Assembly (NCBI RefSeq): GCF_003991155.1
Contig: NZ_CP031293.1
Reading direction: 5' to 3' (one strand)
Length of the DNA stretch: 64,000 bases
Source of the DNA: Escherichia coli
GTDB taxonomy: Bacteria > Pseudomonadota > Gammaproteobacteria > Enterobacterales > Enterobacteriaceae
Each line of letters starts with the position of its first letter. Within the stretch, counting starts at the first letter, position 1. The notes beneath the pieces were generated by a model, which did no database searches, was not told where the DNA came from, and was given only the letters and a program-made list of their open reading frames with translations. Below, piece by piece: positions 1 through 23,945 of the stretch. Made by a program: the position numbers and the translations under genes.

Positions 1-153
1 CAGTAAATCGATAAACACATCTTCACTATCCAGCAGGAACGGGTTCATGCCGGCTTTAATAATTGCTTCTTCACGATAAGCGCGAGTGGTACGTTTTACT
101 GGCTCAATAACACGAATGCGGAACGGTTCAGGGAGATGTTTAAAGTTTTCCAT
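1..153 (-). CDS. tnaA: tryptophanase, N-terminal 51 codons only (gene runs off the window start)
   Basis: Minus-strand translation from ATG at 151-153 gives [51 protein letters not shown], the TnaA N-terminus with one substitution versus the K-12 protein as recalled; an in-frame ATG also lies 15 nt upstream. Confidence 0.85.
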
Positions 154-359
154 TACGTAATCCTTCATTTATTTTAAGGACAGAAAATTACGGAGATATT
201 GCAAATGCAATACCCGATAGTTCGCTAAAATATTTGCAAGAGACATCATTTATAAAAATGAATGATAGTCTTTACAAAAGCAGAAATAAGATATGCCAAA
301 CAGACAGGTTAGATGGAATTCAATCTATTTGACAAAAATGATGGTTACAGAAAGGCAAG

Positions 360-434
360 TTAAGGGTGGTGTTCAACAATCTTGTTGTCGATATTGAACC
401 ATTTTGAGGTCACACATATATGTAAGATATTCAT
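360..434 (-). CDS. tnaC: tna operon leader peptide (24 aa, MNILHICVTSKWFNIDNKIVEHHP)
   Basis: Own translation of minus strand; W12, D16 and terminal P24 are conserved; positions 21 and 23 differ from K-12 TnaC as recalled (DHRP); ~206 nt spacer to tnaA start. Confidence 0.8.
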   Translation of the reverse strand: MNILHICVTSKWFNIDNKIVEHHP

Positions 435-3250: not shown

Positions 3251-3927
3251 CAGTGGCTGCTCCCTTTTATTTCGCGGATAAGTGTCTGTAATAACGCCGG
3301 CGTCAGTTTACCTTTAAGCCTGAGAGTTCCGGCCGGCAGAACCAGCTCACAACACAGACTGTCGGACGGTGTATTTATCTGCTCTGGTTCCTGTGCGGGG
3401 GCCGGGATTTTATTATCCGGCTCCGGCGTTAACGTCACGGGAAGCAGTGCCGGCATATTTTTTCCGGAAGGCAGCAGGCCACCTTTCCGGTATTGATGGC
3501 GCCAGTTGAAGAGCAGGTTATCGTTGATTCCGTTTTCCCGGGCGATCTGCGCCACACAGGCTCCGGGCTGCAGTGACTGCTCCACTAAGGCGATTTTAAA
3601 CTCATAAGGGAAGTTGGGCCGCCGGGGACGTTTTTTTACCACGGGGGCTTCGGATATAACGGTGCTTTCAGGACGTACGACTGGTACCGTGGAAAATTGT
3701 CCGTAAAGGCAGGCATCAAGTTCCTGCTCCGACATGCCTGCGGGCAAAGGCCACGAAAGGCCAGCTCTCCGAAAGCGCACGAACATACTACAAACTGTTG
3801 ATTTTGGTACACCCAGGCGACGCCCGGCCACAACCCGGGGTAAATGTTCTTCAAAGTGAAGACGTAAAGCTTCAGTGATCCAGGTCCGGTGTTTCATACG
3901 ATAGTGTCCATTAAAAATGATGGACAT
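3250..3927 (-). CDS. chimeric ORF: IS21-family IstA-like N-terminus (HTH + LSWPLPAGMSEQELDACLY) fused to IS66-family TnpA (orfA)
   Basis: C-terminal ~130 aa (PNFPYEFKIALVEQSLQPGACVAQIARENGINDNLLFNWR) is IS66 TnpA-like; N-terminal ~95 aa resembles IS21 IstA N-termini. Confidence 0.55.
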   Translation of the reverse strand: MSIIFNGHYRMKHRTWITEALRLHFEEHLPRVVAGRRLGVPKSTVCSMFVRFRRAGLSWPLPAGMSEQELDACLYGQFSTVPVVRPESTVISEAPVVKKRPRRPNFPYEFKIALVEQSLQPGACVAQIARENGINDNLLFNWRHQYRKGGLLPSGKNMPALLPVTLTPEPDNKIPAPAQEPEQINTPSDSLCCELVLPAGTLRLKGKLTPALLQTLIREIKGSSH

Positions 3928-3976
3928 TATTTTTGTAGAGCCGGAGGAAACAGACCAGACGGTTTAAATGAGCCGG

Positions 3977-15205: not shown

Positions 15206-15541
15206 ATGTTTAGAACAGAAGACATCATCGATGAGATAACCCAATGGATTGATTCAAATTTACATAAGCCGCTGAAGATAGAGGATGTTGCTGCGCGGGC
15301 AGGATACTCGAGGTGGCATCTTCAGCGGATTTTTGTGCAGGTGAGAGAAATTAGCCTTGGGAAGTACATAAGAGATACGAAACTTAGACTTGCAGCAAAA
15401 GATCTTATCGCGACTAATGAGCCAGTGATGGTTATCGCCTTTAAATATGGATTCGATTCACAACAAACTTTTACTCGGATTTTCTTTAAAAAATATAAAT
15501 TGCCACCATTGAAATATAGGGTAATGACTCCAACTTATTGA
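15206..15541 (+). CDS. MarA/SoxS/Rob-type small AraC-family regulator, 3' end replaced by IS1 sequence
   Basis: Two HTH regions (SRWHLQRIF... / ...QQTFTRIF) like SoxS; IS1 left end begins at 15520 inside the ORF so the last ~7 codons and the stop are IS1-derived. Confidence 0.7.
15511..15519. repeat. IS1 target-site duplication, left copy (GAAATATAG)
   Basis: Identical 9-mer directly flanks both IS1 ends. Confidence 0.8.
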
Positions 15542-16038
15542 TAGTGTTTTATGTTCAGATAATGCCCGATGACTTTGTCATGCAGCTCCACCGATTTTGA
15601 AAACGACAGCGACTTCCGTCCCAGCCGTGCCAGGTGCTGCCTCAGATTCAGGTTATGCCGCTCAATTCGCTGCGTATATCGCTTGCTGATTACGTGCAGC
15701 TTTCCCTTCAGGCGGGATTCATACAGCGGCCAGCCATCCGTCATCCATATCACCACGTCAAAGGGTGACAGCAGGCTCATAAGACGCCCCAGCGTCGCCA
15801 TAGTGCGTTCACCGAATACGTGCGCAACAACCGTCTTCCGGAGCCTGTCATACGCGTAAAACAGCCAGCGCTGGCGCGATTTAGCCCCGACGTATCCCCA
15901 CTGTTCGTCCATTTCCGCGCAGACGATGACGTCACTGCCCGGCTGTATGCGCGAGGTTACCGACTGCGGCCTGAGTTTTTTAAATGGCGGAAAATCGTGT
16001 TGAGGCCAACGCCCATAATGCGGGCGGTTGCCCGGCAT
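15535..16038 (-). CDS. insB: IS1 InsB (expressed as InsAB' by frameshift)
   Basis: 167-aa ORF matching IS1 InsB. Confidence 0.85.
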
Positions 16039-16232
16039 CCAACGCCATTCATGGCCATATCAATGATTTTCTGGTGCGTACCGGGTTGAGAAGCGGTGTA
16101 AGTGAACTGCAGTTGCCATGTTTTACGGCAATGAGAGCAGAGATAGCGCTGATGTCCGGCGGTGCTTTTGCCGTTACGCACCACTCCGTCAGTAGCTGAA
16201 CAGGAGGGACAGCTGATAGAAACAGAAGCCAC
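15957..16232 (-). CDS. insA: IS1 InsA
   Basis: [42 protein letters not shown]... Confidence 0.9.
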
Positions 16233-16287
16233 TGGAGCACCTCAAAAACACCATCATACACTAAATCAGTAAGTTGGCAGCATCACC

Positions 16288-16522: not shown

Positions 16523-17704
16523 TCAGATCTGCTCAGAAAGTGAATCAATGTAGTCAGCATACCACTGCATCATTTCACGGCGACCATCCAGATACTGGGC
16601 ATGATTATAGGTACCTCTGATAGCGTTTTTATCCATATGAGCTAACTGCATTTCAATCCAGGCAGAATTAAAGCCCTGTTCGTGCAGAATTGTACTCATG
16701 GTGTGTCTGAAACCGTGCCCTGTGAGTCTTCCCTTATATCCTAGTAATTCAATGACTTGGTTTATGCTTTCCTTACTAATTGGTTTGCGAGGATCGTTCC
16801 TACCGATAAAGACCAGAGGATGATGTTTTGAGATTGGTTCAAGTTGCTTAAATAGCGCAATGACCTGCTCAGAGAGCGGCACAATATGAGGTCGCTTCAT
16901 CTTCATTACTTCTGCCGGGATCTCCCATAATTTTGTCTCAAAATCGATATCCTCCCAGCGTGCGAAACGCAATTCTTGAGTTCGTACACCAGTTAGCATA
17001 ATGATTTGAGTGGCTGTCTTAGTGATAATACTTCCGGTATAACCCGCCAGATCATTGAGGAAGTGGGGAAGTTCATTAGCAGTAAGAAAGGGAAAATGTA
17101 CTTTTTTCGGTGTAGCTAAAGCACTGGCAAGATCGGGAGCAGGGTTGTAGTTAGCCCGACCAGTAACAATTGCATAGCGGAACACCTCTCCACAGCGCTG
17201 GCGGACCTTACGCATTTTCTCCAGAGCTCCACGTTTTTCCATTTTACGCAATGCTTCCAGTAACTCCATTGGTTTGATTTCAGCAATAGGGCGTTTGCCA
17301 ATATAGGGAAAAATATCTTTTTCAAAGGTATCAATGATTTCATCACGATAGCGTAATGACCACCGATCGGCTTTTGACTGATGCCATTCTCGAGCAACGG
17401 CCTCAAATGTGTTTTTCAAACTCATTTGCAGCGCGATTTTTTCTTCTTTTTTTGTCTCACCCGGATCGCATCCTGCAGCGAGGATTTTCCTAGCTTCACT
17501 GCGTTTTTCGCGAGCGTCGGCTAGAGTTACATCGGGGTATACGCCAATAGAAAGCATCTTTTCTTTGCCAGCAAAGCGGTACTTCATACGCCAATATTTA
17601 GAACCATTAGTGTTAATGAGTAGATACATACCGCCACCATCAGACAGCTTATAGGGCTTTTCTTTTGGTTTTGCGGTTTTCACTTTAATATCAGTTAACG
17701 CCAT
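16523..17704 (-). CDS. P4-type (CP4-like) tyrosine integrase
   Basis: 393 aa, C-terminal HGFRHT...Y catalytic signature; lies beside the 3' end of selC in the same orientation. Confidence 0.85.
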   Translation of the reverse strand: MALTDIKVKTAKPKEKPYKLSDGGGMYLLINTNGSKYWRMKYRFAGKEKMLSIGVYPDVTLADAREKRSEARKILAAGCDPGETKKEEKIALQMSLKNTFEAVAREWHQSKADRWSLRYRDEIIDTFEKDIFPYIGKRPIAEIKPMELLEALRKMEKRGALEKMRKVRQRCGEVFRYAIVTGRANYNPAPDLASALATPKKVHFPFLTANELPHFLNDLAGYTGSIITKTATQIIMLTGVRTQELRFARWEDIDFETKLWEIPAEVMKMKRPHIVPLSEQVIALFKQLEPISKHHPLVFIGRNDPRKPISKESINQVIELLGYKGRLTGHGFRHTMSTILHEQGFNSAWIEMQLAHMDKNAIRGTYNHAQYLDGRREMMQWYADYIDSLSEQI

Positions 17705-17999
17705 GACATCCTCCGGATTTTGATGAATCCATGTTCCTGGACTTCTGCCAGTAACTGACCTGATATCCCCAATGCACCCCCATGTATAACAAAGATGTTG
17801 TTAAAAGCCGTTGTTATATATCACATTTTTTCCATTATGGGGGTGCTGATATTTTAAGAGAAAATAGTACCCCCTAAAGTACCCCCAAAAGCAACTTGAT
17901 ATGGGGTGATACCGGTTGACCTCGGGATACAAAGAAATCCTGATATACAATAGGTTATATGGAGATTGTTGATATAAGGAGAGTTCAGAAGAGGTTAAT

Positions 18000-18094
18000 T
18001 GGCGGAAGATCACAGGAGTCGAACCTGCCCGGGACCGCTGGCGGCCCCAACTGGATTTGAAGTCCAGCCGCCTCACCGGAGACGACGATCTTCC
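18000..18094 (-). tRNA. selC: tRNA-Sec (selenocysteine)
   Basis: Reverse complement reads GGAAGATCGTCGTCTCCGGTGAGGCGGCTGGACTTCAAATCCAGTTGGGGCCGCCAGCGGTCCCGGGCAGGTTCGACTCCTGTGATCTTCCGCCA (95 nt, CCA end), matching E. coli selC as recalled. Confidence 0.9.
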
Positions 18095-18386
18095 GCGCCT
18101 CGATTGCTACATGGAGGCGGGGCGCATTATAGCTACTTCCTTGAGTTTCTACATCCCCCAGATCAGTTTTTTCCGCCTAATACACGCAGCGTATTATCAC
18201 GAAAGCATTATAATTCATATAAAACCCATACTTTACAATGATATATGAGCGTAATTTACGCTACCACGATCACATAAAACAAGAATCATAAATTAATAAC
18301 CAGATATCGGAATATTCGCTCTCACAGGGATGGTTTACAAAATGCGTTATCGGTCTCAGCACCCCTATAGCATCAAGGAAAAGCAG

Positions 18387-22391: not shown

Positions 22392-23945
22392 ATGCAAATG
22401 ATTACCTCGCGACAAAACAGATTATTACGATTCCTTTTACCTCGAAGGGAATATACGACTATTGTTACGATTGCCGGCTATTTAAATGTTTCGGAAAAAA
22501 CCATTCAACGTGATTTACGTTTACTTGAGCAATGGCTGGGGCAATGGAGAATAAATGTTGAGAAGCGTGCTGGCGCGGGTGTGATGTTAAGCGCGGAGAA
22601 TATTGCTGATTTGCTGCATCTTGATCATTTGTTGGGAGCAGAATGTGAAGAGATTGATGGTGTAATGAATAATGCCAGGCGCGTTAAAATAGCGTCGCAG
22701 TTATTAAGTGAAACACCGAATGAAACGTCGATCAGTAAATTGTCAGAACGCTACTTTATCAGCGGAGCCTCTATTGTTAATGACCTGAGAGTAATTGAGT
22801 CCTGGCTTGCGCCGTTGGGGTTATCATTGATCCGCAGCCCAAGTGGTACGCATATTGAAGGTAGTGAAGGGCAAGTCCGACAGGCAATGGCATTACTGAT
22901 TAACGGCATTATTAACCATAATGAGCCGCAAGGTGTCGTGTATTCACGTCTGGATCCCGGAAGTTATAAAGCATTAGTCCATTATTTTGGAGAAGAAGAG
23001 GTGTTATTTGTCCAGTCATTGTTACTGGATATGGAAAATGAATTAAGTTGGTCTTTGGGAGAGCCTTATTACGTTAACATTTTTACTCACATCCTTATTA
23101 TGATGTATCGCAACACGCACGGGAATGCGTTATCCAGAGAAGAAGATCAAACCAGGCAATATGATGAAAATATCTTTAATGTTGCCAGTCAGATGATTCA
23201 TAAGATAGAACAACGAATTGCACATACATTGCCCGATGATGAAGTCTGGTTTATTTATCAATATATCATTTCATCAGGTGTGGCGATTGATGGACAAAAA
23301 GATGTGAGCATTATTTCACATATGCAGGCCAGCAATGAAGCGCGTCTGATTACCTGGCGTTTAATTACGGTATTCAGTGACATCGTGGACTGCGATTTTA
23401 GTGAAGACAGCGCATTATATGATGGCTTGTTGGTTCATATTAAGCCGCTGATTAACCGACTAAATTATCGCATTCATATCCGTAATCCATTGCTGGAAGA
23501 TATTAAAGCAGAATTAGCGGATGTCTGGCGGTTGACGCAATATGTGGTGAATCAGGTATTTAAAACCTGGGGTGAGAATGCAGTGAGCGAGGATGAAGTG
23601 GGTTACCTGACCGTTCATTTTCAGGCTGCGATGGAGCGGCAAATTGCCCGTAAACGCGTATTACTGGTCTGTTCAACCGGAATCGGAACTTCGCATCTAC
23701 TGAAAAGCCGTATTCTGCGAGCGTTTCCTGAATGGACGATTGTTGATGTTATTTCAGCAGCGAATTTATCACAGGTTTTGCCTGACAATATCGAACTGAT
23801 TATTTCGACCATTAATTTGCCTACAGTCACTATGCCGGTCGCTTATGTTACCGCTTTTTTTAATGATGCCGATATTAAGCGGGTCACTGAAATGGTGATT
23901 ACGGAAAAATTACATCATGCGACGTCTCGGGTCGTTGAAATTTAA
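22392..23945 (+). CDS. PRD-containing transcriptional regulator (BglG/MtlR/LicR-type activator with EIIB/EIIA-like domains), frz-like operon
   Basis: 517 aa; N-terminal HTH, central PRD-like regions, C-terminal CSTGIGTSHLL EIIB-like motif. Confidence 0.7.
   Translation: MQMITSRQNRLLRFLLPRREYTTIVTIAGYLNVSEKTIQRDLRLLEQWLGQWRINVEKRAGAGVMLSAENIADLLHLDHLLGAECEEIDGVMNNARRVKIASQLLSETPNETSISKLSERYFISGASIVNDLRVIESWLAPLGLSLIRSPSGTHIEGSEGQVRQAMALLINGIINHNEPQGVVYSRLDPGSYKALVHYFGEEEVLFVQSLLLDMENELSWSLGEPYYVNIFTHILIMMYRNTHGNALSREEDQTRQYDENIFNVASQMIHKIEQRIAHTLPDDEVWFIYQYIISSGVAIDGQKDVSIISHMQASNEARLITWRLITVFSDIVDCDFSEDSALYDGLLVHIKPLINRLNYRIHIRNPLLEDIKAELADVWRLTQYVVNQVFKTWGENAVSEDEVGYLTVHFQAAMERQIARKRVLLVCSTGIGTSHLLKSRILRAFPEWTIVDVISAANLSQVLPDNIELIISTINLPTVTMPVAYVTAFFNDADIKRVTEMVITEKLHHATSRVVEI

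Follow-up and report, generated by a model that had tools for sequence, protein, structure and literature searches.

Candidate arm-type integrase sites between selC and the integrase gene of a P4-family genomic island in Escherichia coli

The GenBank record of phage P4 (NC_001609), a satellite phage of 11.6 kb that integrates at leuX, annotates a set of 12-nt "attP arm sequence repeats". On the int side of the core these repeats comprise a tandem pair (3942-3953 and 3954-3965, the latter 112 nt from the core) and, 23 nt from the pair, an inverted copy (3915-3926), and the other arm carries a second tandem pair 53 nt from the core. These repeats have the sequence TTGGGGGCAT, and P4 int is transcribed away from the core.

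A related arrangement has been studied experimentally in the IntS-TorI module of KplE1 (CPS-53), HK620 and Sf6 at argW, where the tRNA gene and the integrase gene have the same orientation and TorI is the helper. According to the KplE1 study (Panis et al. 2010, PMC2951348), the arm-type sites of IntS on attL have a TAAA motif in common and overlap the intS promoter, TorI sites on attL are reported separately from them, the int promoter lies inside attL, and the integrase is negatively autoregulated. That work tested the IntS sites with mutagenesis and with excision in vitro; the sites that we describe below are known from sequence. In the K-12 genome we read GGGTAAAA-type direct and inverted repeats just upstream of intS, four sites next to the gene and abutting its ATG, and at the far end of KplE1 a pair with a 12-bp period about 59 nt from the core. 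Matched by position, the repeats next to intS are taken here to be the published IntS arm sites.

The IntA/AlpA element CP4-57, at ssrA in K-12, has a trio upstream of intA (TAGGCCCA twice, then TGGGCCTA) and at its far end a pair of 12-bp period about 57 nt from the core. Its motif (AGGCCCA) and its target differ from those of the island described here, and it likewise carries an AlpA-family gene within the element. We know the CP4-57 repeats solely as read from the genome.

The selC spacer and its C-run motifs

The window, by which we mean the whole 64-kb stretch of E. coli DNA that was analysed, holds selC and an integrase gene, both on the - strand (Table 1). The integrase ATG at 17704 is preceded by a GGAGG ribosome-binding site, and transcription of the gene points away from selC, as that of P4 int does from its core. 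The tRNA gene precedes int in the same orientation, as at argW, and the 295-bp spacer between them (17705-17999), which is long enough for an attL arm, is the int-proximal arm of the island attachment site. Since the chromosomal genes yicJ and yicI lie beyond selC on the non-integrase side, the island lies to the left of 18000 and runs past the window start. No Rfam family besides tRNA-Sec was found in the spacer.

The integrase contains a complete Arm-DNA-bind_3 domain (residues 3-88, E 1.2e-29) as well as the Phage_int_M and Phage_integrase domains, and its N-terminal domain matches the solved apo structures PDB 3JU0 (E 7e-33) and 3JTZ. The protein is 96% identical to IntL of O157:H7 (strain 2159), about 48% identical to IntS of KplE1/HK620/Sf6 and 43% identical to P4 Int.

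Four copies of a C-run motif had been reported between the integrase start and selC in an earlier note on this DNA, and all four were recovered. Two read GCACCCCC (17774-17781 on the + strand, and 17839-17846 on the - strand, which appears as GGGGGTGC on the + strand) and two read GTACCCCC (17867-17874 and 17879-17886, both on the + strand). The formula under which they had been presented, (G/T)(C/A)ACCCCC, fails for GTACCCCC and is replaced here by G(C/T)ACCCCC, which fits. GYACCCCC has no other match in the window, and all four copies fall within 113 bp of the spacer. The count itself is not enriched, at four against 2.4 expected in the window. The clustering was assessed in two ways, each of them post hoc: four of the ten ACCCCC/GGGGGT hexamers lie within 120 bp (P about 5e-6 under random placement), and C-run clustering was compared with dinucleotide shuffles of the spacer (P = 0.0006). 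A chance cluster was rejected on these statistics together with conservation across genera.

Alignment of relatives revealed degenerate copies beyond the four, namely ATATCCCCAAT, TCACCCCATAT and a lost GTCCCCC, and divided the copies into two sets. The conserved trio consists of the copies at 17839, 17867 and 17879, with that at 17774 outside it; most relatives read GCACCCCT at the latter position and ATACCCCCAAT at the adjoining site s0, where the window has a minority T (column conservation 0.94). The GTCCCCC copy of the relatives is missing from the window through a 5-bp deletion at 17739/17740, and the inverted partner of the 17774/17763 pair, kept in relatives, is gone from the window. 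Positions 17767-17782 and 17872-17887 are 81% identical at a spacing of 105, and the 17774/17763 set looks like a lineage-specific, degenerate duplication, by about 105 bp, of the s3/s4 pair. The weak inverted site s5 is present in the E. coli lineage and in locus L053, has C-run counterparts at the same place in L030 and L039, and is absent in P4. Within the close clade the mean conservation of the spacer was 0.86 and the sites stood out modestly (P = 0.013); because the entire spacer is conserved, footprinting within this clade discriminates weakly. A perfect 10-nt inverted repeat (GCACCCCCAT / ATGGGGGTGC) was also considered as an RNA hairpin and rejected, as the fold z-score was merely -1.9 and the 17774 arm varies in relatives against an invariant 17839 arm that shows no compensating change.

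Table 1. Features of the selC-integrase region in the window and of the far island end in the surrogate genome L002 (strain 2016C-3878)
Feature	Sequence	Position	Strand	Remarks
tRNA-Sec gene (selC)		18000-18094	-	ARAGORN; Rfam RF01852
Core, selC 3' 24 nt	TGGCGGAAGATCACAGGAGTCGAA (as on + strand)	18000-18023		Direct repeat at far island end
Possible inverted site s5	TCACCCCATAT	17899-17909	-	Weak; conservation 0.73
Candidate arm-type site s4	GTACCCCCAAAA	17879-17890	+	Tandem pair member 1; conservation 0.96; 113 nt from selC 3' end (family median 114)
Candidate arm-type site s3	GTACCCCCTAAA	17867-17878	+	Tandem pair member 2 (int-sense), 12-bp period; column conservation 0.93 (17 spacers, several genera)
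Candidate arm-type site s2	GCACCCCCATA	17836-17846	-	Inverted member, 24 nt past pair, a gap typical of the family; conservation 0.98, top value in spacer
Site s1	GCACCCCCATG	17774-17784	+	Second, degenerate set; conservation 0.79
Site s0	ATATCCCCAAT	17763-17773	+	Degenerate partner of s1
YTGATAT, five copies	YTGATAT	17760, 17846, 17896, 17940, 17969 (within 17760-17975)	all +	Clustered
Integrase ORF		16523-17704	-	393 aa, intact; P4/CP4 family (Pfam)
Distal direct repeat	TGGCGGAAGATCACAGGAGTCGAA	L002 23453-23476		Beside setC
Distal C-run pair	GTAACCCCCATAAGAACCCCCAAA	L002 ~23376-23400		12-bp period
AlpA-family gene		L002 1897-2130	-	77 aa; PF05930, E 2e-10; same island

The far junction and the layout across the integrase family

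An IS1 at 15520-16287 of the window disrupts an AraC-type helix-turn-helix gene adjoining the integrase, and the junction that it forms was found in no complete RefSeq E. coli genome. For this reason the distal arm was read in a surrogate, strain 2016C-3878, which is 100% identical to the window over 37.6 kb save one IS1. The far end of the island in this genome is about 44 kb distant, next to setC, and is marked by a direct repeat of the selC 3' end. The motif had been proposed as something to look for at the opposite island junction, and in the surrogate it is there: a GTAACCCCCATAAGAACCCCCAAA pair lies 55 nt inside the distal repeat, in the orientation of the 17867/17879 pair. One repeat motif, different from the core sequence, is found on both arms around the core, the distal arm being that of the surrogate.

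The distal pair was compared among eight selC islands with differing cargo. The block GATAAATGAkTAACCCCCATAAGnACCCCCAAATG was nearly invariant and its flanks diverged, with neighbours that differed among the islands (RhuM, DUF2441, DUF4942). This C-run pair block was the best-conserved stretch of the distal arm in the eight islands, and it is the sole part of that arm that still matches in many genomes.

The arrangement on both arms follows that of P4. An int-side tandem 12-mer pair is accompanied by an inverted copy, a tandem pair occupies the other arm, the 12-bp period is common to both elements, and the core-pair, pair-inverted and distal pair-core spacings given above for P4 are here 113, 24 and 55 nt. 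Site s3 corresponds to the P4 repeat 3942-3953, s4 to 3954-3965 and s2 to 3915-3926. The motif here is TTGGGGGTAC; the P4 form GGGGGCAT differs by one base, the base after the G-run being T here and C in P4. The elements differ in other respects: the island measures about 44 kb and targets selC rather than leuX, and in the selC lineage the trio and the int start stand about 130 bp further apart, in a stretch that bears the second, degenerate set, which P4 does not have. Compared with KplE1, the motif is GGGGGTAC in place of the K-12 repeat type. The parallels with P4 and KplE1 are positional.

To place the window within its family, a homologue scan with one genome per species was used, which gave 80 loci of 95-58% identity from many genera of Enterobacterales. 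A tRNA gene in the same orientation lay just upstream of the integrase in 59 of the 80; its identity was SeC down to 66% identity, and then Arg, Ser, Thr, Phe or Gly. In the int-sense direction all of these spacers followed a common architecture, a tandem pair of a short motif and then an inverted copy. An unbiased scan, which accepted any exact 6-mer occurring as a tandem pair plus inverted copy upstream of int, recovered this arrangement in 69/81 homologous loci as against 0.4% of shuffles. The tandem period was nearly always 12; between pair and inverted copy the gap was usually 20-28 nt, mostly about 24.

Distances to the two ends of the spacer behaved differently in the homologous loci. 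From the tRNA 3' end to the pair the median was 114 nt (interquartile range 113-115), with a second class at 122-125 nt, one helical turn more, that occurred across tRNA targets and motif classes. From the pair to the int ATG the distance ranged from 48 to 186 nt. Thus the constraint is on position and phase relative to the core and not on distance from the gene start, which is what sites for the assembly of a recombination complex should show.

The motif itself falls into classes: GGGGGT(A/G)C in the clade of the window, GGGGGCAT or GGGGGCYT in others, and TGTATAG in a third group. Motif class tracked the N-terminal domain of the integrase, and neither the catalytic domain nor the tRNA target. 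In loci with GGGGGC, identity to the window integrase was 68/88% and 70/82-85% (residues 1-90/rest), whereas a GGGGGT locus gave 92/80%; these uncoupled identities argue that the motif follows the arm-binding domain. When alignment columns were ranked by how much they tell about motif class, residues 1-90 held 18 of the top 30 (hypergeometric P = 5e-6, with ancestry not fully controlled), and position 50 is M/L/V in 21/21 GGGGGT loci and R/K in 34/34 GGGGGC loci, counts that are inflated by shared ancestry. Among the family proteins (L020-L099) the integrase evolves in modules, the N-terminal 90 residues and the remainder being uncoupled.

Candidate integrase sites and the alternatives

On this evidence we estimate a probability of about 85% that the C-run motifs are bound, as arm-type sites, by the N-terminal domain of the P4-family tyrosine integrase and form the int-proximal arm of the attachment site. 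The core of the array would be the head-to-tail pair (17879, 17867) with the inverted copy at 17839, matched by the pair at the far junction. On the model of lambda Int, P4 and KplE1, the N-terminal domain of each integrase monomer would hold an arm site and its catalytic domain a core site in the selC 3' end, bending of the DNA between arm and core sites bringing the two together. The arms would in this way be the scaffold on which the recombination complex forms, both in integration and, aided by an AlpA-type helper, in excision. The copies at 17774 and 17763 would be a decaying duplicate of the pair nearer the int start, which might act in regulation only or do nothing.

The spacer holds a second clustered motif. 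YTGATAT occurs five times in 216 bp, as against 31 occurrences in the window where 18 were expected, and three of the five copies abut C-run sites. Between core and arm pair, relatives have TCAAC/TCTAC repeats with a period of about 11 bp, and KplE1 has GTTCG repeats at the same place as these TCAAC-like repeats. We infer that the GTTCG repeats are the TorI sites reported in PMC2951348. YTGATAT may mark candidate sites for an AlpA-family excision factor or a host bending protein; the canonical IHF consensus WATCAANNNNTTR had no exact match in the spacer. An AlpA-family gene is located about 5.5 kb beyond window position 1 in the surrogate genome, and its product is likely the excision helper of the island, in the role that TorI has in KplE1.

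The earlier note had offered arm-type sites or an excisionase/regulator array as the identity of the C-run motifs. Lambda Xis sites lie on one arm only. An excisionase array would be expected on a single arm, in the stretch from the core to the integrase arm sites, and the C-run motif is not placed in this way. That the motifs are sites for a recombination directionality factor of the AlpA/Vis/TorI type, and not for the integrase, is in our view improbable. Such factors typically bind short head-to-tail repeats with roughly the period of a helical turn, the surrogate island does contain an AlpA-family gene, and a helper would co-evolve with its element too; yet the C-run motif stands on both arms, its class tracks residues of the integrase N-terminal domain, the equivalent repeats of P4 carry the label of attP arm repeats in the GenBank record, and YTGATAT/TCAAC fills the place expected for a helper. 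PMC2951348, moreover, assigns the sites at the corresponding positions of KplE1 to IntS, and the repeats that we take for its TorI sites have a different motif and lie nearer the core. We therefore favour the integrase as the probable ligand, on the P4 geometry, the fixed distance to the core, the covariation and the KplE1 IntS positions. The arm-type part of the earlier proposal is accordingly supported and the excisionase part is unlikely, given a motif on both arms and a different one proximal to the core; as for the four copies, the trio was retained and 17774 was not.

The int promoter must lie in the spacer between selC and int, and the sites occupy the sole space for it; bound integrase should therefore lower its own transcription. 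No match to the sigma-70 promoter consensus or to a terminator consensus was found in 17500-18350, and because the spacer holds no sigma-70 consensus the overlap of promoter and sites is one that we infer. These considerations raise the question of whether the sites are an operator for int autoregulation and nothing else, with no part in recombination. Their position between selC and the int ATG is compatible with that, as are the second set (17763-17784) nearer the int start and a 4-fold repression of the equivalent EDL933 region by IntL (PMC2951348). An operator would nevertheless be expected to show the opposite pattern of distances from the one found, in which the core distance is fixed, with a one-turn alternative, and the ATG distance varies threefold; and the matching pair at the far junction is about 44 kb from any int promoter. 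We consider a purely operator function very unlikely.

It is hardly credible, finally, that the sites are relics kept by descent in an island that is no longer mobile, with no current function in this strain: IS elements and pseudogenes do litter the island, one site in the window has a point change, another was lost to the 5-bp deletion and about 100 bp of the array is lost in O157:H7, but the integrase ORF, the trio, the distal pair and the direct repeat are all intact, and the proposal concerns present activity rather than the identity of the sites.

Read as integrase arm sites, the array would be an ordinary, expected part of the recombination site of a mobile island, the P4 arrangement in a selC-specific member of the family, and the conceptual gain is correspondingly small. 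What is obtained is the likely attachment-site anatomy (core, both arms and spacing) of a selC-specific integrase that many selC islands of E. coli share. Close relatives of both the integrase and the arm sequences occur in LEE-associated elements of O55:H7 and O157:H7. This anatomy can be used to delimit island ends, to design mini-attP substrates, and to judge mobilisability by the presence of an intact trio, distal pair and integrase.

O157:H7, the LEE and a possible recognition code

Our search of the literature for mapped arm sites of selC integrases found none, and returned just the autoregulation of IntL. The integrase of O157:H7 strain 2159, 96% identical to that of the window, occupies the same selC site; in EDL933 the corresponding cryptic element, 933L, is next to the LEE. 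The selC-intL spacer of strain 2159 (L019 8398-8592) is 195 bp long, compared with 295 bp in the window, owing to a deletion of about 100 bp equivalent to 17782-17886 by which the inverted site and one member of the pair are gone. The deletion runs between the equivalents of the 17774 and 17879 copies, with one end in each, so that the event looks like a collapse between the two repeated pairs.

As described in PMC2951348, gfp is expressed from an EDL933 selC-intL fragment (-273 to +70), and IntL represses this expression 4-fold. This result supports integrase action on this DNA in vivo, at the level of the fragment rather than of mapped sites. If the EDL933 fragment matches the strain 2159 spacer, as we assume, it has no equivalent of 17782-17886, and the repression is therefore not assignable to the trio.

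The right end of the LEE was read in O55:H7 (L008 1500-1840) and O157:H7 (L009/L019). It contains a copy of the proximal arm with no integrase, a degenerate core, and a distal arm with a C-run pair; therefore the LEE and the neighbouring 933L-like element are two tandem selC islands.

A more speculative proposal, which we hold tentatively and think rather doubtful, is that this family combines a simple, readable recognition code with module swapping and a duplicated trio whose functions have split. As regards the code, GGGGGT versus GGGGGC may track position 50 (M/L versus R/K) and position 6 (V/I versus R) of the integrase. The arm domain and its sites appear to be swapped without regard to the catalytic domain, which determines the tRNA target. 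With respect to the duplication, the copy 113 nt from the core would serve recombination and the copy at the int start may serve autoregulation; if true, duplication would have split two functions that overlap in P4 and KplE1.

Several further observations were made in the course of these comparisons. In Kluyvera georgiana (L034) two tRNA-Sec calls, 765-857 and 1244-1338, lie about 480 bp apart upstream of the integrase, perhaps because of a tandem insertion or because an attachment site was duplicated. The similarity between the two junctions of the E. coli island runs about 15 nt past the tRNA end (CAGAAGAGG). A rhuM fragment at L002 23477-24115, between the distal direct repeat and setC, suggests a remnant of an earlier selC island. 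Within the island itself is a tnaC-tnaA-tnaB tryptophanase operon (window 1-434; L001 1777-4812), flanked by IS66 and IS110 remnants, and the window starts inside tnaA.
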